A stretch of 30,959 nt of DNA from the IMG/VR virus record IMGVR_UViG_2531839474_000010, positions 1 through 30,959 of that record; one strand, written 5' to 3'. The first letter of the stretch is position 1. Each line of letters starts with the position of its first letter. Source of the DNA: a virus (lineage: Duplodnaviria; Heunggongvirae; Uroviricota; Caudoviricetes). The notes beneath the pieces were generated by a model, which was not told the DNA's origin, did not search any database, and saw only the letters and a list, made by a program, of their open reading frames with translations. The translations under genes and the position numbers were made by a program. This document shows positions 3,147 through 30,959 of the stretch, piece by piece.

Positions 3147-3365
3147 TCACAATCCCCATTGTTTGTTCTTAAGTTCGATCTCCTCCTGGCAACTTGCACA
3201 AGTCCGACAACCCTGAACGGCCAGGCGTCTTCGTTCATCTATGGGATCGCCACACTCACAACAATGAGTGGCAGATATAGCCTGGTGGTTCAGACGACGC
3301 ATTTTTATTGCTGTATTGCGCTGTAATTCTTCGATTTCTGATGCTGAATCAATGATGTCTGCCAT
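3147..3365 (-). CDS. TraR/DksA-family C4 zinc-finger protein, 72 aa
   Basis: CxxC...CxxC arrangement (CCECGDPIDERRRLAVQGCRTCASC) in a 72-aa protein, typical of phage TraR-like proteins. Confidence 0.7.
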   Translation of the reverse strand: MADIIDSASEIEELQRNTAIKMRRLNHQAISATHCCECGDPIDERRRLAVQGCRTCASCQEEIELKNKQWGL

Positions 3366-3413
3366 CTTCCATTAATCCCTGAATTGTTGGTTAATACGCT
3401 TGAGGGTGAATGC

Positions 3414-3441
3414 GAATAATAAAAAAGGAGCCTGTAGCTCC
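3414..3441 (-). terminator. Weak candidate intrinsic terminator within the early-left operon
   Basis: Short GGAGC/GCTCC stem at 3427..3441 followed on the minus strand by a TTTTTTATTATT tract (plus-strand A-run 3414..3426). The stem is only 5 bp. Confidence 0.3.
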
Positions 3442-3463
3442 CTGATGATTTTGCTTTTCATGT

Positions 3464-3745
3464 TCATCGCTCCTTAAAGACGCCGTTTAACATGCCGATC
3501 GCCAGGCTTAAATGAGTCGGTGTGAATCCCATCAGCGTTACCGTTTCGCGGTGCTTCTTCAGTACGCTACGGCAAATGTCATCGACGTTTTTATCCGGAA
3601 ACTGCTGTCTGGCTTTTTTGATTTCAGAATTAGCCTGACGGGCAATGCTGCGAAGGGCGTTTTCCTGCTGAGGTGTCATTGAACAAGTCCCATGTCGGCA
3701 AGCATAAGCACACAGAATATGAAGCCCGCTGCCAGAAAAATGCAT
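3464..3745 (-). CDS. Hypothetical phage early protein; start ambiguous (TTG 3778, ATG 3745 or ATG 3679)
   Basis: ORF downstream of the methyltransferase on the same strand; no recognisable motif. Confidence 0.45.
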   Translation of the reverse strand: MHFSGSGLHILCAYACRHGTCSMTPQQENALRSIARQANSEIKKARQQFPDKNVDDICRSVLKKHRETVTLMGFTPTHLSLAIGMLNGVFKER

Positions 3746-3755
3746 TCCGTGGTTG

Positions 3756-4313
3756 TCATGCAGCCTCCCGACGGGCAAGAATCCTTGAGCCGAACGCCAT
3801 CAACTCTCCACGATCAACGGTCGTAAAGTGGCAGTGTGTACGGGGGTATGGGTGCCAGATAATGAGCATCGAGCCTTTATTATTTCCACTGACGGGTTTC
3901 CCGGTGAGTGGGTTAATAAATGCCAGTCGTCCTGCCGTGATGAATCTGACCTCACTGGCGGTTTGTATCGCTTCATGAAACCATCCGACAGATGTGTCAG
4001 CAGGCAATAACATTACACATCCCACACTACTGAATTTGTTTTCAGTGGCTGCCTTTTTCACAAAAGGGGAAATATTGCTGTATGGTGGATTCAACCAGAC
4101 ATAACCAGAGGCATATCCCATTGCTTCAGGCCATGAAGTGGTTAATGTGTTCTGCTCCTGTGAGATAAAAAGCCGACATAGTCGGTTTTTTTCGTTGGCT
4201 GCAGCATCAAGTTGAAAAACGAACTCTGCATTCAGCGCAGCAAAAATCTCTGGTGGTGTGCGCCAGCTGTCGCGATGTTCGGCAGGAGTATTGCTTCCGG
4301 TGAAATCAGTCAT
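3756..4313 (-). CDS. Phage-type DNA N6-adenine methyltransferase (Dam family), 185 aa
   Basis: Contains WLNPPYS (the NPPY motif IV of N6-adenine MTases) in a protein of the size of the small phage Dam family; no cognate restriction gene nearby. Confidence 0.8.
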   Translation of the reverse strand: MTDFTGSNTPAEHRDSWRTPPEIFAALNAEFVFQLDAAANEKNRLCRLFISQEQNTLTTSWPEAMGYASGYVWLNPPYSNISPFVKKAATENKFSSVGCVMLLPADTSVGWFHEAIQTASEVRFITAGRLAFINPLTGKPVSGNNKGSMLIIWHPYPRTHCHFTTVDRGELMAFGSRILARREAA

Positions 4314-4467
4314 ACAGCCCCCGTTTATTATTTATCTCCTCAGCCAGCCGCTGTGCTTTCAGTGGATTTCGGATAACAGAAAGGCCGGGAAATACCCAGC
4401 CTCGCTTTGTAACGGAGTAGACGAAAGTGATCGCGCCTACCCGGATATTATCGAGAGGATGCTTCAT
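4306..4467 (-). CDS. Small hypothetical protein, about 54 aa, not in the ORF track
   Basis: Minus-strand reading [26 protein letters not shown]...; its ATG overlaps the exo stop (ATGA) and its TGA overlaps the methyltransferase ATG, a translational-coupling arrangement at both ends; GGAG lies 8 nt upstream. Confidence 0.4.
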
Positions 4468-5144
4468 CGCCATTGCTCCCCAAATACAAAACCAATTTCA
4501 GCCAGTGCCTCGTCCATTTTTTCGATGAACTCCGGCACCATCTCGTCAAAACTCGCCATGTACTTTTCATCCCGCTCAATCACGACATAATGCAGGCCTT
4601 CACGCTTCATACGCGGGTCATAGTTGGCAAAGTACCAGGCATCTTTTCGTGTCACCCACATGCTGTACTGCACCTGGGCCATGTAAGCCGATTTTATGGC
4701 CTCGAAACCACCGAGCCGGAACTTCATGAAATCCCGTGAGGTAAACGGGCATTTCAGTTCAAGGCCATTGCCGTCACTGCATAAACCATCGGGAGAGCAG
4801 GCGGTGCGCATACTTTCGTCGCGATAGATGATCGGGGATTCAGTAACATTCACGCCGGAAGTGAACTCAAAGAGGGCTCTGGCGTCGTTCTCGTACTGTT
4901 TTCCCCAGGCCAGCGCCTTAGCGTTAACTTCCGGAGCCACACCGGTGCAAACCTCGGCAAGCAGGGTGTGGAAGTAGGACATTTTCATGTCAGGCCACTT
5001 CTTTCCTGAGCGGGGCTTTGCTATCACGTTGTGAACTTCTGAAGCGGTGATGACGCCGAGCCGTAATTTGTGCCATGCATCATCCCCCTGTTCGACAGCT
5101 CTCACATCGATCCCGGTACGCTGCAGGATAATGTCCGGTGTCAT
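4464..5144 (-). CDS. exo: Lambda-type exonuclease (Red-alpha), 226 aa
   Basis: Translation [40 protein letters not shown]... is near-identical to recalled lambda Exo; same length. Confidence 0.96.
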
Positions 5145-5926
5145 GCTGCCACCTTCTGCTCAGTGGCTTTCTGTTTCAGGAATCCAAGAGCTTTCACTGC
5201 TTCGGCCTGTGTCAGTTCTGACGATGCGCGAATGTCGCGGCGAAATATCTGGGAACAGAGCGGCAATAAGTCGTCATCCCATGTTTTATCCAGGGCAATC
5301 AGCAGAGTGTTAATCTCCTGCATGGTTTCATCGTTAACCGGAGTGATGTCGCGTTCCGGCTGACGTTCTGCAGTGTATGCGGTATTTTCGACAATGCGCT
5401 CGGCTTCATCCTTGTCATAGATACCAGCAAATCCGAAGGCCAGACGGGCACACTGAATCATGGCTTTATGACGTAACATCCGTTTGGGATGCGACTGCCA
5501 CGGTCCGGTGATTTCTCTGCCTTCGCGGGTTTTGAATGGTTCGCGGCGGCATTCATCCATCCACTCGGTAACGCAGATCGGATGATTACGGTCCTTGCGG
5601 TAAATCCGGCATGTACAGGATTCATTGTCCTGCTCAAAGTCCATGCCATCAAACTGCTGGTTTTCATTGATGATACGGGACCAGCCATCAACGCCCACCA
5701 CCGGAACGATGCCGTTCTGCTTGTCAGGGAAGGCGTAAATTTCTTTCGTCCACGGATTAAGGCCGTACTGGTTGGCGACGATCAACAATGCGATGAACTG
5801 CGCATCGCTGGCATCACCTTTAAATGCCGTCTGGCGAAGAGTGGTGATCAGTTCCTGTGGGTCGACAGAATCCATGCCGACACGTTCAGCCAGCTTCCCA
5901 GCCAGCGTTGCGAGTGCTGTACTCAT
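5141..5926 (-). CDS. bet: Lambda-type single-strand annealing protein Bet (Red-beta), 261 aa
   Basis: Translation [48 protein letters not shown]... matches recalled lambda Bet; overlaps the exo start as in lambda. Confidence 0.96.
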
Positions 5927-5931
5927 CCGTT

Positions 5932-6228
5932 TTATACCTCTGAATCAATATCAACCTGGTGGTGAGCAATGGTTTCAACCATGTACCGGATGTGTTCTGC
6001 CATGCGCTCCTGAAACTCAACATCGTCATCAAACGCACGGGTAATGGCTTTTTTGCTGGCCCCGTGGCGTTGCAAATGATCGATGCATAGCGATTCAAAC
6101 AGGTGCTGGGGCAGGCCTTTTTCCATGTCGTCTGCCAGTTCTGCCTCTTTCTCTTCACGGGCGATCTGCTGGTAGTGACGCGCCCAGCTCTGAGCCTCAA
6201 GACGATCCTGAATGTAATAAGCGTTCAT
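5932..6228 (-). CDS. gam: Gam, host RecBCD inhibitor, 98-aa short form
   Basis: Translation [47 protein letters not shown]... matches the lambda GamS region. Confidence 0.93.
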
Positions 6229-6303
6229 GGCTGAACTCCTGAAAATGGCTGTGAAAATATCGCCCGCGAAATGCCAGGCTGATTAGGAAAACAGGAAAGG
6301 GGA

Positions 6304-6714
6304 TTAGCGATTCAGGCCGTTACCGCGTCCGTCGAGAAAAACTTCCACGAGCAAATCACGGGTATAAGTGCGCTCGATGCCGCGATGCAGATAAAGCCGT
6401 CCGCGTAAATTAGCTGATGCAGTCCAGGTACCATCTTTGTGTTTGACCAGCATTCCTGGCATGACCGCACCTCGATTAACGGTCTGCGTTCCGTAATGTT
6501 GATGAACCATAAAAACTCCTGCCCGTAAGCTGGGCTGCTGAACATATAGAGACTTCTGCGCGTATTCAGGCGGTGGATGGCCGCCGGTTGTCATAACTAA
6601 GTCGCCTCGTTGAAGCGACTGAGGTATGAAGTGTTGAGTTGATTTCAGCTGGTCACACCGACGTTCACGCGTCCGCTTCACCCCTCGCACTCCCCGGAGC
6701 CTGCTGAAATTCAA
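6304..6714 (-). CDS. Hypothetical early-left protein; first gene downstream of the putative pL/OL; start uncertain (6714 or ATG at 6594)
   Basis: 136-aa ORF with an Arg-rich N-terminus ([15 protein letters not shown]) ending just upstream of gam. Function unknown. Confidence 0.4.
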
Positions 6715-6769: not shown

Positions 6770-6870
6770 CATCGATGCAATAGCATGACAATAGCAATGG
6801 CTATTGATGTAGTCAATAGCAATTAGTATTGATAATGTTTGATATACTTGTTCTGATTGATAATTAAATG
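6770..6870. promoter_or_regulatory. Putative left operator/promoter region (OL/pL)
   Basis: AT-rich intergenic DNA with three direct CAATAGCA copies (6778, 6789, 6814), the palindrome CAATAGC-AATG-GCTATTG (6789..6806) and three ATTGAT motifs (6802, 6828, 6856). The same motifs recur between cI and cro. Confidence 0.4.
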
Positions 6871-7096: not shown

Positions 7097-8704
7097 TTAA
7101 TTTATGTTTTCAACATTTCCATGAATCAACAAGTCGTAGGCAAGAAATAGTTTCCTATACTGGGTTTTTAAATTGTCAACGTCGCATGCCTTGAATTGAA
7201 CAAACGCTTCTTTTTTAACATAATCTTCAATCTCCTCTTTGGGGATATTTTTTATGTTCTTAATGACTATAGACAATTCTTTGTACTTTTTGAACGTTGC
7301 ATTCTTTATATCTTTGATGTTGGTGTAAATTTTATTTGCATTGATTTTATCTAAGGTGATTTTATTGAGCAAGTCGTCTAGTTTTCCGTGGCGTTCAATG
7401 CGTTGATTTAGTTTTAACACATATTTAGCTGGCAAACTTAACTCTTTCAAATTACATGAGGTTATAGTTTTTGAAAATGGAAGCTGTAATGAGTTTACTG
7501 AACCTAATATGAAATCTATGGCTAATTTATTAGATATTTCATTTTTATCAAATAAGTAGTCTTCAAGATAATTTATTTCTTTAACTTGTGTGAATACATA
7601 CTTTTTATCGCCTAGAGCAACAACTAAATTTTTTCCTTGTTTAACACTTTCTTCAAGTCTGTCTAAGTCAGAAGGTGAAACCAATAGAGTATCTAAGTGC
7701 CCTTTTTCACCCTCATTAATGATAAGTGTTTTAATGGCTCTTTGATACCTTAAAACATCATAAGGTGAGAGCCCTTCATCAACAGCACTGATCTCATCAT
7801 AGATCTGTTTATAGTTATCTGTTTTAACAGATGTATATGTAATTTGTAGCTGTTGATCGGTAATCTGTTTTGGTACTACTTCCTGTTCATTCTCTTTATA
7901 TTCAATCAAAATTATTCTTTCAGCTGATTTTCGACCATCTTCTCTAGGTAGTTGTGAGGAAAAATCAGAAAGAAGTTTCTTTACATTCCTGTCAGTTAAA
8001 GAATATCCAAGAAAAACTATTGGATTTTTAATCATGTTAGATAGTATCTTGGCACTAATGAGTATAGATTTGTTGTCATATTTTTCGTAATCATCTTTAT
8101 TTATGATTATTGAGTGTGGATCCTTTATATCACCATGGATTTTGTATAACTCACTCCATCCAATAGTATCTTCGAAAAAACCATTATTTCCAATATAGAG
8201 TTTTGGAGTTACATTTTGCTCTTGAAGTAAATTTTCTATGAAAGCATCATAATTTGTAGTGATGATTATCTTGGCCTTTTTTATTAATGTTTTAAATGAT
8301 GCTAATTCATCAAGATTTACATCCTTTCTGATTGTGTTATTAGAAAATCTTTGGCATATAGCGTATTTAAATGGTGAAATATCTTCACTAAAAACCCTCT
8401 TGGCATCTAGTCCATTTAATTTTAATTTGCCAGTCCTAAACAATAGATTGTAATCATTTTCAATTTTACTTGCTGCCTCTGTATAAATCTTATGATCGAT
8501 ATCATTATCACTGTTATTTTTATGTGATTCTTTTATTGTTAAAAGATAACTATAGAAATCATTTGTGGGATTTGTTATTTTCCAATACTCGTTTAATAGC
8601 TCTTCCCACGTTGGGTAGTTCTCTAAATATCTTTTTGAAATGCCTGAGCCAATAAAGACTATTGGGTAATTTTTGAATTCAAAATTTTTTTTTGACATAT
8701 CCAT
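7097..8704 (-). CDS. SIR2-family (SIR2_2 / ThsA-DSR-like NADase fold) protein with an uncharacterised C-terminal domain, 535 aa; candidate anti-phage effector
   Basis: Ordered motifs: Gly-rich loop VFIGSGIS (res 16-23), TTNYD (res 149-153; N151 codon at 8252..8254), KIHGD (H190 codon at 8135..8137), FLGYSLTD (res 231-238). Asn-to-His spacing is 39 residues, close to the roughly 40 recalled for ThsA/DSR2. Strongly AT-rich (about 30% GC by eye) against a roughly 50% phage background. Same strand as cI, immediately downstream. Confidence 0.75.
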   Translation of the reverse strand: MDMSKKNFEFKNYPIVFIGSGISKRYLENYPTWEELLNEYWKITNPTNDFYSYLLTIKESHKNNSDNDIDHKIYTEAASKIENDYNLLFRTGKLKLNGLDAKRVFSEDISPFKYAICQRFSNNTIRKDVNLDELASFKTLIKKAKIIITTNYDAFIENLLQEQNVTPKLYIGNNGFFEDTIGWSELYKIHGDIKDPHSIIINKDDYEKYDNKSILISAKILSNMIKNPIVFLGYSLTDRNVKKLLSDFSSQLPREDGRKSAERIILIEYKENEQEVVPKQITDQQLQITYTSVKTDNYKQIYDEISAVDEGLSPYDVLRYQRAIKTLIINEGEKGHLDTLLVSPSDLDRLEESVKQGKNLVVALGDKKYVFTQVKEINYLEDYLFDKNEISNKLAIDFILGSVNSLQLPFSKTITSCNLKELSLPAKYVLKLNQRIERHGKLDDLLNKITLDKINANKIYTNIKDIKNATFKKYKELSIVIKNIKNIPKEEIEDYVKKEAFVQFKACDVDNLKTQYRKLFLAYDLLIHGNVENIN

Positions 8705-26984: not shown

Positions 26985-28060
26985 ACGACAATGTCACGCT
27001 ACGGGTAAATGGCCGGGAGTGGAATGGCTGGACATCGGTGCGCATCGGTGCCGGTATTGAACGGCTGGCGCGGGATTTCAGTGTGGAGATCACTCGCCAG
27101 TGGCCGGGAGATGAGGGTATCACCACGCTTCAGCCGCGCATTAGAAACGGTTCAAAAGTGGAAGTGCTGATTGGTGATGAGCTGGTGATCACCGGCTGGG
27201 TGGAGGCGACTCCCGTTCGTTACGATGCCCGTTCGGTCAGCACCGGTATTGCCGGACGTAGTCTGACGGCTGACCTGATTGACTGTGCAGCCGAACCGAC
27301 ACAGTTTAACGGACGCTCGCTGGTGCAGATTGCGCAGGCGCTTGCTGCGCCTTTCGGCATTGAGGTGGTGAACAGCGGTGCGCCGTCGGGTGTTATTCCT
27401 GATGTTCAGCCTGATCACGGTGAAACGGTGATTGAGGTAATCAACAAAATACTCGGTCAGCAGCAGGCACTGGCTTACGACGACCCGCACGGCAGGCTGG
27501 TGATTGGCGGTATTGGCTCAACGCGGGCACATACCGCGCTGGTACTCGGGGAAAACATCCTTTCCTGCGATACGGAGAAGAGTATCCGGGAGCGATTTTC
27601 TGTTTACCAGGTGGCGGGGCAGCGTGCCGGGAACGACGATGATTTCGGTGAGGCCACCACCACCGCGCTGCGGGCCCGCACAGAGGACGCATTTATTGCC
27701 CGTTACCGTCCGATGTATATCAGGCAGACAGGGCAGGCTACGGGGGCAGGTTGTATTGTCCGTGCGGACTTTGAAGCCCGACAACGGGCGGCGCGGACGG
27801 ATGAAACCACCTATGTGGTGCAGGGCTGGCGACAGGGTAACGGTACGCTGTGGCAGCCCAACCAGCGGGTGATTGTCTTTGATCCGGTCTGTGGTTTCGA
27901 CAATACCGAACTGCTTGTTTCGGAAGTCACGTTTACTCAGGACCAGAACGGCACCCTGACGGAAATCCGTGTCGGCCCGCCTGATGCTTATCTGCCTGAA
28001 CCCGAAGCCCCCGGCGCGCGGAAAAAGAAAAAAGCCAGAGTACAGGAGGACCCGTTCTGA
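26981..28060 (+). CDS. Mu gpP-like baseplate hub / tail protein
   Basis: 359-aa ORF coupled to its neighbours in the Mu-like baseplate order. Confidence 0.8.
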   Translation: MNDNVTLRVNGREWNGWTSVRIGAGIERLARDFSVEITRQWPGDEGITTLQPRIRNGSKVEVLIGDELVITGWVEATPVRYDARSVSTGIAGRSLTADLIDCAAEPTQFNGRSLVQIAQALAAPFGIEVVNSGAPSGVIPDVQPDHGETVIEVINKILGQQQALAYDDPHGRLVIGGIGSTRAHTALVLGENILSCDTEKSIRERFSVYQVAGQRAGNDDDFGEATTTALRARTEDAFIARYRPMYIRQTGQATGAGCIVRADFEARQRAARTDETTYVVQGWRQGNGTLWQPNQRVIVFDPVCGFDNTELLVSEVTFTQDQNGTLTEIRVGPPDAYLPEPEAPGARKKKKARVQEDPF

Positions 28061-28608
28061 TGAGGACGATTGAAGCCATGCAGCGACAACTCCTCGGCCT
28101 GATTGGGCGGGCCGTGGTGAAAAGCATCAGTGCCGCCACGAAATGTCAGACCGTGGATGTGTCCCTGATTGCCGGTGAACCCAAAGCCGGGGTTGAACAT
28201 CTTGAACCCTACGGTTTTACCGCAAGGGCAAACAGCGGTGCGGAAGCGGTTGTGTTGTTTCCGGATGGCGACCGTTCTCATGCGGTGGTTGTTACGGTGT
28301 CGGACCGTCGCTACCGCCTGAAAGGGCTGCAGACGGGCGAGGTGGCTGTCTATGACGATCAGGGGCAGTCCGTGACGCTGACCCGGGAGGGGATCGTGGT
28401 GGACGGTGCAGGTAAAACGATCACGTTTCGCAATGCACCTGAAGCACGTTTTGAAATGGACCTGGAAGTGACCGGACAGGTGAAAGACCTGTGCGACTCC
28501 GGCGGCACCACCATGTCAGCGATGCGGCTTGCCTATAACGGGCATCGTCACAGAGAGAACGGTCAGGGCAGTAACACCGACAAACCGGATAAAGCGATGG
28601 AGGCATGA
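28060..28608 (+). CDS. Baseplate spike / assembly protein V-like (Mu gp45-like)
   Basis: 182-aa ORF in the conserved position; overlapping start and stop. Confidence 0.78.
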   Translation: MRTIEAMQRQLLGLIGRAVVKSISAATKCQTVDVSLIAGEPKAGVEHLEPYGFTARANSGAEAVVLFPDGDRSHAVVVTVSDRRYRLKGLQTGEVAVYDDQGQSVTLTREGIVVDGAGKTITFRNAPEARFEMDLEVTGQVKDLCDSGGTTMSAMRLAYNGHRHRENGQGSNTDKPDKAMEA

Positions 28609-29033
28609 TGGAACTGTGGCTGACGGTGAACGGTAAACGCACCTGCGCCAGCGCACCGCTGGATCCGCTGACCCGCTCCGTGGTGATTTCCCTGTTTACC
28701 TGGCGGCGGGCGGAGCCTGATGACAACGCCGACGTCCCGATGGGATGGTGGGGGGATACCTGGCCTGCGGTACAGAATGACCGTTACGGCTCCCGACTGT
28801 GGCTGCTTCAGCGCAGCAAACTGACCAATCAGCTGGTGCAGACGGTAAGGGGGTATATCCGCGAATGCCTGCAATGGATGATTGATGATGGCGTGGTGTC
28901 CCGTATTGATCTGGATATCCGCCGCACCGGGATTAATGAACTGGGTAACAGTATCACTCTCTGGCGTCGTGACGGACCGGTAATGATTTCTTTTGATGAT
29001 CTGTGGAGTGCGATAACGCATGGCGGACAGTGA
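28605..29033 (+). CDS. Mu gp46-like baseplate protein
   Basis: 142-aa ORF in the conserved position between the spike and baseplate-J genes. Confidence 0.75.
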   Translation: MMELWLTVNGKRTCASAPLDPLTRSVVISLFTWRRAEPDDNADVPMGWWGDTWPAVQNDRYGSRLWLLQRSKLTNQLVQTVRGYIRECLQWMIDDGVVSRIDLDIRRTGINELGNSITLWRRDGPVMISFDDLWSAITHGGQ

Positions 29034-30078
29034 ATTTCAGCGCCCGACGCTGGCAGAAAATATCAGTATGCTCCGTAACGATTTATTCGCCAGGCTGGAC
29101 GTCAGCGACACGCTCCGGCGCATGGATGAAGACGTGCGGGCAAAGGTGTATGCGGCGGCGCTGCATACGGTTTACGGTTACATCGATTATCTGGCAATGA
29201 ACATGCTGCCTGACCTGTGCGATGAGTCCTGGCTGGCGCGACATGCTGCGATGAAACGGTGTCCGCGCAAGGGGGCCACGGCTGCCAGCGGGTATATGCG
29301 CTGGGAAGGTGTCAGCGATGGCCTGAAGGTGACCGCCGGGAGTGTTATTCAGCGCGATGACCTGGTTCAGTACACGGCAACTGCCGATGCAACCAGCTCC
29401 GGTGGTGTCCTGCGCGTGCCGATCGCCTGCTCAAGTTCAGGCGCGGTCGGTAACGCTGACGACGGTACGTCATTAATCCTGGTCACGCCGGTGAATGGTC
29501 TGCCGTCTTCCGGTGTGGCTGACACCCTGACAGGCGGATTTGATACTGAAGATCTGGAAACGTGGCGCGCCCGCATCATTGAGCGGTATTACTGGACGCC
29601 GCAGGGCGGGGCTGACGTGGACTATGTCGTCTGGGCTAAAGAAGTGCCCGGCATTACCCGCGCATGGACATACCGTCACTGGATGGGAACGGGAACTGTC
29701 GGTGTGATGATTGCCAGCAGTGACCTGATTAATCCCATTCCGGAAGAATCAACGGAAACGGCGGCAAGACAACACATTGAGCCACTGGCCCCGGTGGCAG
29801 GCTCTGATTTGTATGTATTCAGGCCGGTGGCGCATAAAGTGGATTTTCATATCCGCGTGACGCCGGACACACCGGAAATACGGGCTGCCATCACCGCAGA
29901 GTTGCGTTCGTTCCTGCTGCGTGATGGTTATCCTCAGGGAGAACTGAAGGTATCGCGTATCAGTGAGGCGATTTCCGGTGCGAACGGGGAATACAGCCAT
30001 CAGTTGCTTGCCCCGGCGGACAATATCTCCATTGCAAAAAATGAACTGGCGGTTCTGGGGACGATTTCATGGACGTGA
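29020..30078 (+). CDS. Baseplate J-like protein (Mu gp47-like)
   Basis: 352-aa ORF; size and order within the baseplate cluster. Confidence 0.82.
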
Positions 30079-30653
30079 CAAACGATGATTACATCCGCCT
30101 GTTATCGGCACTGTTGCCGCCCGGTCCTGCATGGTCAGCCAGCGATCCGGCGATTGCCGGTGCGGCACCTTCATTAACCCGCGTTCATCAGCGTGCGGAT
30201 GCCCTGATGCGGGAGCTGGATCCGCGCACCACCACTGAACTGATAAACCGCTGGGAGCGTCTGTGCGGTCTGCCGGATGAATGTATTCCCGCAGGGACAC
30301 AGACCCTTCGCCAGCGTCAGCAACGGCTGGATGCGAAGGTTAATCTGGCGGGCGGCATCAATGAGGATTTTTACCTTGCACAGCTTGCTGCCCTGGGCAG
30401 ACCAGACGCCACTATCACGCGATACGATAAAAGCACGTTCACCTGCTCATCGGCCTGTACTGACGCAGTGAATGCGCCGGAATGGCGGTATTACTGGCAG
30501 GTCAACATGCCAGCCGCCACCAACACCACCTGGATGACATGTGGCGATCCCTGTGATTCCGCACTGCGTATCTGGGGCGACACCGTTGTCGAGTGCGTGC
30601 TTAACAAACTCTGCCCTTCGCATACCTACGTAATTTTTAAATATCCGGAGTAA
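30069..30653 (+). CDS. Mu gp48-like (DUF2313-like) baseplate / tail-fibre-proximal protein
   Basis: 194-aa ORF preceding the tail-fibre gene; family assigned from memory. Confidence 0.75.
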
Positions 30654-30656
30654 TCC

Positions 30657-30959
30657 ATGCATCGTATAGACACGAAAACCGCGCAGAAGGATAAGTTCGG
30701 CGCGGGTAAGAACGGTTTTACCCGTGGTAACCCCCAGACCGGCACACCTGCCACCGATCTGGATGATGACTACTTTGACATGTTGCAGGAAGAACTTTGT
30801 AGCGTGGTGGAGGCCTCCGGTGCCAGCCTGGAGAAAGGGCGGCATGACCAGATGCTTACCGCACTTCGTGCGCTGCTGTTAAGCCGCAAGAATCCGTTTG
30901 GCGATATCAAATCGGATGGCACTGTGCAAACGGCTCTCGAAAACCTTGGTTTGGGAGAA
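30657..30959 (+). CDS. Tail fibre protein, N-terminal 101 codons; runs off the window end
   Basis: Starts [48 protein letters not shown], the conserved N-terminal domain of enterobacterial prophage tail fibres; no stop before the window end. Confidence 0.78.

Follow-up and report, generated by a model that had tools for sequence, protein, structure and literature searches.

The gene at positions 3756–4313 of the window, by which we mean the whole 30,959-nt stretch of tailed-phage DNA analyzed here, raises the question of whether it encodes an orphan adenine methyltransferase, to which family such an enzyme belongs, and what it does for the phage that carries it. The minus strand has an ORF of 185 aa at this position (ATG at 4313–4311, TGA at 3758–3756), which is exactly where the initial annotation had placed a phage N6-adenine methyltransferase, and profile searches bear the assignment out. 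The protein matches Pfam PF05869 "Dam" with 190.5 bits (cutoff 28.1; E = 2.3e-56) over profile positions 1–168 of 169, and the NCBIfam equivalog TIGR01712 "phage N-6-adenine-methyltransferase" with 166.9 bits (cutoff 97.05), both full-length matches above the curated cutoffs. It also matches PHROG 111, "DNA methyltransferase" (E = 7e-78), and its best PADLOC matches are "oMTase" (orphan methyltransferase) models. No restriction endonuclease gene adjoins it, as had likewise been noted from the start; its neighbors are a homolog of lambda orf60a (DUF1317) and an orf61-like ORF, both flanking genes being 97.6–97.7% identical to lambda DNA, and the locus has no adjacent, co-oriented cognate endonuclease of the kind that marks a type II restriction-modification system. 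We thus regard it as nearly certain, for both family identity and orphan status, that this is an orphan adenine methyltransferase of the T1/HP1 phage type.

The sequence motifs expected of an active enzyme are in place. Catalytic motif IV, N75-P-P-Y78, is encoded at 4080–4091 on the minus strand (AAT CCA CCA TAC) and reads WLNPPYS in translation. In both alignments of homologs that we made, N75, P76, P77, Y78, and S79 are unvarying, including the 14-sequence alignment, which takes in Enterobacterales homologs together with the T1-like (Tls), HP2, and VT2-Sakai enzymes; the NPPY motif named in the initial annotation (residues 75–78) is thus invariant in 14 aligned homologs. An inactivating mutation in this motif, which had been named as grounds for rejecting the assignment, was looked for, and NPPY proved intact. 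A motif-I-like D36-A-A-A (4197–4208, minus strand) is found where the first predicted strand (residues 33–36) ends, with D36 and A39 invariant and A38 nearly invariant in the 14-sequence alignment, where W17, T19, and P20 of an N-terminal W-x-T-P element are invariant too. D36 is presumably the acidic residue that binds AdoMet, and the W-x-T-P and (L)D-x-x-A elements are presumed to form the cofactor/substrate pocket. In an AlphaFold model built from 25 sequences (mean pLDDT 82.7, pTM 0.81), D36 ends strand 33–36 and NPPY directly follows strand 71–74. The best matches of this model in a viral structure library are models of phage DNA N-6-adenine-methyltransferases (TMq 0.72–0.82, E down to 1.8e-20), with giant-virus PCIF1-like proteins ranking lower, and its best fold matches in the PDB are SAM-dependent adenine methyltransferases. 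The protein is therefore predicted to share an alpha/beta methyltransferase fold with the members of its family. Against Enterobacter and Klebsiella orthologs (76–80% amino acid identity) dN is 0.14–0.20 and dS is saturated, so that for these distant pairs only the qualitative statement dN << dS can be used rather than a ratio; for the sole close pair, with the copy in phage PhiR30_1, dN/dS is 0.19. By these measures, the gene is intact and has evolved under purifying selection.

As for the label "Dam family" in the initial annotation, it holds in the sense of PF05869 and the T1/HP1 enzymes but not in that of E. coli or T4 Dam. A Pfam search with the 185-aa protein returned only PF05869 at E ≤ 0.01 and no match to PF02086 (MethyltransfD12), the family of E. 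coli/T4 Dam; the locus lacks that match, the DPPY motif, and the inserted DNA-recognition domain by which the latter enzymes are recognized. A sequence search of the PDB gave no match at E ≤ 1, so there is no solved PF05869 structure for direct comparison. The best solved structures in the fold search are those of the cap-specific adenosine methyltransferase PCIF1/CAPAM (TMq 0.52–0.58), followed by tRNA and rRNA methyltransferases, while E. coli Dam structures align partially, over about 116–151 columns, with a TMq of 0.26–0.33. Among the papers citing PF05869 is one about fungal DIRS and Ngaro retrotransposons (PMC3783388). According to Iyer et al., PCIF1 and the methyltransferases of DIRS elements belong to an M.EcoKI/M.TaqI-like group, apart from E. 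coli/T4 Dam (PMC4738411). The enzyme probably works like Dam but is no close family member of the host Dam, and "Dam" is a functional name for a protein whose predicted fold is nearest to the NPPY/NPPF enzymes of the PCIF1 type.

The genomic setting is that of a lambda-like prophage whose integration site is the tRNA-Thr gene next to proA: the window begins in proA, which is followed by tRNA-Thr (1369–1444) and then by the prophage. An integrase gene (1459–2622) is followed by a DUF4222 gene and a TraR-like gene, all three on the minus strand, and from there the same strand carries, in order, the orf61-like ORF, the methyltransferase, orf60a, exo, bet, gam, kil, a SIR2-like gene, and a cI-like repressor gene (8811–9539). 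The late region (13719–30959, plus strand) encodes terminase, portal, prohead protease, and capsid proteins along with a contractile tail sheath. This is a module of the myovirus type, fused here to a lambda-like early region. Such a mosaic is uncommon: any one complete E. coli genome in our collection covers at most 86% of the window's first 25 kb.

Within the early region, the methyltransferase gene sits in a sharply bounded cassette. Positions 3170–3759 and 4311–6307 are 97.6–97.7% identical to lambda 30418–31008 and 31194–33190 (blastn), and between them the window has a non-lambda segment at 3760–4310 in place of lambda 31009–31193, the body of orf63, as delimited by blastn and junction alignments. 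The latter show lambda homology resuming exactly at the shared ATG (4311–4313) and breaking off one base beyond the shared stop codon (3756–3758). The methyltransferase thus replaces lambda orf63 from start codon to stop codon, an ORF-for-ORF swap typical of lambdoid mosaicism. The slot belongs to the exo-xis genes, which have been reported to affect lysogenization and induction (PMC3824215). Enterobacter and Klebsiella prophages have an ortholog in the same region between recombination genes and integrase; in all three genera the methyltransferase gene lies immediately downstream of the recombination module, irrespective of the kind of recombinase (Red-beta/exo here, RecT/YqaJ in Enterobacter, RecT/gp157 or ERF in Klebsiella). 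In one Klebsiella locus (L009, 2690–4603; GCA_033541585.1), a 74%-identical ortholog forms the C-terminal domain of an uninterrupted 637-aa ORF, the N-terminal part of which is a C5-cytosine methyltransferase (PF00145). This ORF would be a bifunctional m5C/m6A fusion, and PF00145 and PF05869 are combined in several database entries as well (P0051, P0060, and others). Genes resembling homing endonucleases (HNH_3 with AP2 or NUMOD4) lie directly downstream of the ortholog in Enterobacter (L008, 4555–5049) and Klebsiella (L009, 4600–5741); the 30,959-nt window has none.

The gene upstream of the methyltransferase, the 55-aa orf60a homolog (4306–4473, minus strand; Pfam PF07026, E = 8.8e-32), ends in a TGA at 4308–4306 and so overlaps the methyltransferase gene by 8 nt, which suggests that translation of the two is coupled; the methyltransferase ATG is preceded, at a distance of 4 nt, by a G-run (GGGGG). 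Downstream, the orf61-like ORF is annotated in RefSeq with 71 aa (3464–3679, minus strand), its frame being open up to a TTG at 3778. The start codon of lambda orf61 falls within the replaced segment, and a 1-nt indel relative to lambda lengthens the frame by about 40 codons, to a stop at 3464. An unannotated hydrophobic ORF of 27 codons, MTTTECIFLAAGFIFCVLMLADMGLVQ, lies at 3676–3759 on the minus strand, with its ATG overlapping the methyltransferase stop codon as ATGA; lambda has the identical ORF, overlapping the stop codon of orf63. A pattern scan finds a terminator-like hairpin with a T-run (3425–3443, minus strand) just beyond the orf61-like ORF, where this stretch of the leftward transcript may end.

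Transcription would start at a candidate pL at 6788–6816 on the minus strand (TTGACT-17-TATTGT with TG), found by pattern scan and positioned by analogy with lambda. It is overlapped by an operator-like 21-nt palindrome at 6800–6820, picked up in the same way, and sits in the gap that separates the SIR2 gene from kil, upstream of the methyltransferase operon. The order kil-gam-bet-exo-orf60a-[slot]-orf61, all on the minus strand, is that of lambda, and it is this synteny that speaks for the early-left operon to which the gene had initially been assigned. We recognized no N-like antiterminator ORF between the candidate pL and kil, so the expression model rests on synteny; and since terminator-like hairpins are also found within the operon by pattern scan, for example at 4381–4403, expression of the distal methyltransferase gene is not assured.

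The methyltransferase was already known, and the initial finding is confirmed as correct. In RefSeq genomes the CDS is WP_000129282.1, "phage N-6-adenine-methyltransferase," and over the surrounding 1.3 kb the chromosomes of two RefSeq E. coli strains, DAM and ANT, match the window at 100% identity. The full cassette is present in 244 of 5,426 complete E. coli genomes, chromosomal in all of them, and these copies are identical or at least 98.5% identical, with the ORF intact. An isolated, plaque-forming phage, PhiR30_1, encodes a protein 98.9% identical to it. Among the best 120 of 598 homologs found in a protein search (65–99% identical), nearly all bear the name "phage N-6-adenine-methyltransferase," and those with a named source are from Escherichia, Klebsiella, Enterobacter, Citrobacter, and other Enterobacterales. 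This is, in short, an ordinary and widespread gene, annotated in databases beforehand. In the literature on PF05869, its E. coli prophage members, and the Dam enzymes of lambdoid phages, we found no functional study of WP_000129282.1 and no measured specificity. E. coli B and BL21(DE3) have a remnant of the cassette (e.g., NZ_CP053602.1, 537507–537873; 99.2% identity) that corresponds to the 3′ two-thirds of the gene (query positions 1–367 of 551) and is annotated as "DNA N-6-adenine-methyltransferase." In some records, from E. coli B derivatives and other strains, the truncated cassette adjoins replication protein P, and it is apparently a leftover in a different prophage context.

The condition of the prophage bears on whether the gene has any use at present. 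An IS3-family element of 1,310 bp (12099–13408), with 25-nt inverted repeats and HTH_Tnp_1 and rve ORFs, lies directly against the 3′ end of replication gene P; its terminal sequence and length fit IS629. Between this element and the terminase small subunit gene (13719), there is no nin/Q/lysis module. Because of the IS629-like insertion and the missing module, this copy of the prophage is probably a defective one, in which case the methyltransferase may be idle, without purpose, in its present host.

The initial annotation had also described the gene as co-located with a defense candidate, hinting at a functional link. The candidate is a 535-aa SIR2_2-domain protein (7097–8704, minus strand) that matches PADLOC candidate PDC-S25 from end to end (E = 1.3e-235). 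It does lie in the same half of the prophage, 2.8 kb from the methyltransferase, but in a separate module, between the cI-like repressor and the candidate pL, so that exo, bet, gam, kil, and that promoter separate the two genes. The slot is the cI-adjacent one in which lambda has rexAB, a moron slot that is expressed in lysogens. At 99% identity or more, the SIR2 gene is found in 166 complete E. coli genomes, many of them O157:H7, as against 244 for the full methyltransferase cassette. O157:H7 strain DEC4E shares the SIR2 gene and the immunity region but has orf63/DUF1382 in the methyltransferase slot; conversely, a BamE-like gene takes the SIR2 slot in strain DAM, whose methyltransferase is identical to ours, and PhiR30_1 has the methyltransferase with two other genes there. 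The consistent co-occurrence and shared transcription unit of a two-gene system are thus not seen. The two genes assort independently, and the functional pairing hinted at finds no support.

What the enzyme is likely to methylate can be judged from its characterized relatives. M.EcoVT2Dam of the Stx2 phage VT2-Sakai is "known to target GATC" (PMC6602927), and we take it to be orf32 because this is the sole methylase-like gene annotated in the VT2-Sakai record. Phage T1 Dam (M.EcoT1Dam) is described as modifying DNA to G(m6)ATC, and M.Btr190III, a prophage relative of it that appears silent in its native host, methylates GATC when cloned, with marked off-target activity (PMC4996451). HP2 Dam, from a Haemophilus phage, is annotated as shown to methylate in E. 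coli. GATC is the main reported target of the four characterized members considered here (T1, HP1/HP2, VT2, M.Btr190III), which are 35–47% identical to one another or to our protein. Since relatives this diverse target GATC, it is the best prediction here too, perhaps with relaxed fidelity, and by this analogy we consider it reasonably likely to be the target. With 107 GATC sites in its 29.5 kb, the prophage offers abundant substrate. Usage of the site was discarded as a hint, the observed/expected ratio of 0.68 lying within the spread of GGCC (0.61), CTAG (0.56), and ACGT (0.76). Set aside as comparators were the nonspecific enzymes of the Hia5, Hin1523, and M.EcoGII type, which are reported to be related to E. 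coli Dam or to belong to another family (PMC3299994), and M.EcoGIX ("SAY," single-strand specific), which is plasmid-borne and tied to conjugation.

The explanation that we favor, and consider quite likely as a whole, is that a PF05869 cassette that replaced orf63 is expressed from pL and methylates phage DNA at GATC before packaging. The product would be a small DNA N6-adenine methyltransferase that has a single domain, depends on AdoMet, and belongs to the "Dam" family of phages T1, HP1, and VT2; it would be carried on a one-gene mosaic cassette. It would be silent in the lysogen and transcribed from pL upon induction or infection, its translation coupled to that of orf60a, and it would act on the GATC adenine, perhaps with some relaxed off-target methylation, in keeping with the characterized relatives. 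Fast-replicating phage DNA would be fully methylated before packaging and would not stay hemimethylated, and progeny would be protected in the next host from methylation-sensitive restriction of the GATC type. Host Dam under-methylates rapidly replicating lambda DNA. It is from this lag, from the position in a repressed early operon, and from the general behavior of orphan methyltransferases of mobile elements that we infer full methylation of replicating phage DNA before packaging as the biological role, to which we would give even chances. Since E. coli hosts have a Dam of their own, a phage GATC enzyme looks partly redundant. According to a review, semispecific orphan methyltransferases of mobile elements protect exported DNA, and many phages encode Dam homologs (PMC12707154).

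Several other readings have to be weighed against this one, and most concern the substrate. The enzyme could be an active m6A DNA methyltransferase of relaxed, nonspecific, or non-GATC specificity, serving as a broad antirestriction or counterdefense modifier rather than as a Dam equivalent. The nearest characterized enzymes, the GATC-proven relatives among them, are only 40–47% identical to it, the T1-Dam relative M.Btr190III shows significant off-target methylation, orphan methyltransferases of prophages and plasmids are often promiscuous (PMC4659465; PMC12707154), and the protein has no separate target-recognition domain, its 185 aa covering the whole profile. Such a modifier is nonetheless unlikely, because T1, HP1/HP2, VT2, and M.Btr190III all act mainly on GATC despite an identity of 35–47%, and the nonspecific Hia5 and Hin1523 belong to the family related to E. 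coli Dam (PMC3299994). That RNA or single-stranded nucleic acid is methylated instead of duplex DNA is very improbable: PCIF1/CAPAM, which acts on mRNA caps (m6Am), and the tRNA/rRNA methyltransferases do come out as the nearest solved structures, but the PDB has no PF05869 structure, the viral-library matches are phage DNA methyltransferases, and the family members T1, HP1/HP2, VT2, and M.Btr190III methylate DNA. The constant placement beside a recombination module, if functional rather than positional, would allow the enzyme to methylate recombining phage DNA; we think it improbable that it is such a recombination-licensing factor, rapidly methylating new or recombining phage DNA, perhaps with relaxed specificity. 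Were this so, MutH-directed mismatch repair and methylation-sensing defenses would be blinded during Red-type recombination, beyond any effect on restriction.

The remaining readings deny the enzyme a role in the phage life cycle or give it a partner. It is distinctly unlikely that the gene is a silent passenger, intact yet functionally irrelevant in a decaying prophage and never usefully expressed in the present host. The IS629-like element that abuts gene P, with terminase next and no nin/Q/lysis module in between, and the truncated copy in E. coli B/BL21 are what decay would leave behind, and prophage methyltransferases are commonly silent in lysogens; yet such silence is expected of a lytic-phase gene and is no argument against a phage function, the ORF is intact and nearly invariant in the 244 complete genomes and in plaque-forming PhiR30_1, and purifying selection across the family is strong. 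As for the SIR2-like PDC-S25 gene, their shared place in the leftward half of the prophage is what could make the methyltransferase the modification half of a defense or self-protection pair. We find this extremely doubtful, since DEC4E, DAM, and PhiR30_1 contradict it by independent assortment, the early genes and the candidate pL/operator lie in between, lysogens express the SIR2 slot but repress the early operon that holds the methyltransferase, and PADLOC files the latter as an orphan.

The significance of the locus beyond its correct annotation is small: it offers an intact orphan methyltransferase in an ORF-precise swap for orf63, separate from the SIR2 defense gene. It also calls for caution with the label "Dam," which here denotes an NPPY enzyme of the T1/HP1 type and no homolog of host Dam. 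GATC methylation by a prophage is masked by host Dam, so such enzymes can confound the interpretation of methylomes, and they can alter the restriction sensitivity of released phage.

Compared with known systems, the favored reading places the protein among phage enzymes and at a distance from its functional namesake. With the alpha-class Dam of E. coli and T4 (PF02086), it shares membership in the general Rossmann-type methyltransferase superfamily and probably the product, G-m6A-TC, but it has NPPY where these have DPPY, and no separate DNA-recognition domain. With lambda orf63 (DUF1382), it shares the slot between orf60a and orf61, down to the positions of the start and the stop codon; orf63 itself encodes an unrelated 63-aa protein without methyltransferase features. 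Phage T1 Dam is likewise an orphan and is 45% identical across the catalytic core (41–43% for the Dam of T1-like Tls), but it comes from a virulent siphovirus and is longer, at 237 aa: its N terminus extends about 45 aa further, and 14 residues are inserted ahead of the GR(L/V)(A/N)F strand. The Dam of HP1/HP2 is a single-domain orphan of 172 aa from a temperate phage, with 40% identity; it differs in belonging to a P2-like phage, in reading LDTCA instead of LDAAA, and in its divergent C terminus. M.EcoVT2Dam, copies of which are present in many Stx phages, is likewise a PF05869 orphan of a lambdoid E. coli phage, with NPPYS and LD(A/S)AA motifs and 175 aa as against 185, and orf32 is 47% identical to our protein over the full length. 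The VT2-Sakai gene lies, however, among the rightward nin genes, flanked by a ninB-like gene and ninE, rather than in the leftward exo-xis region, and an identity of only 47% points to separate acquisitions.
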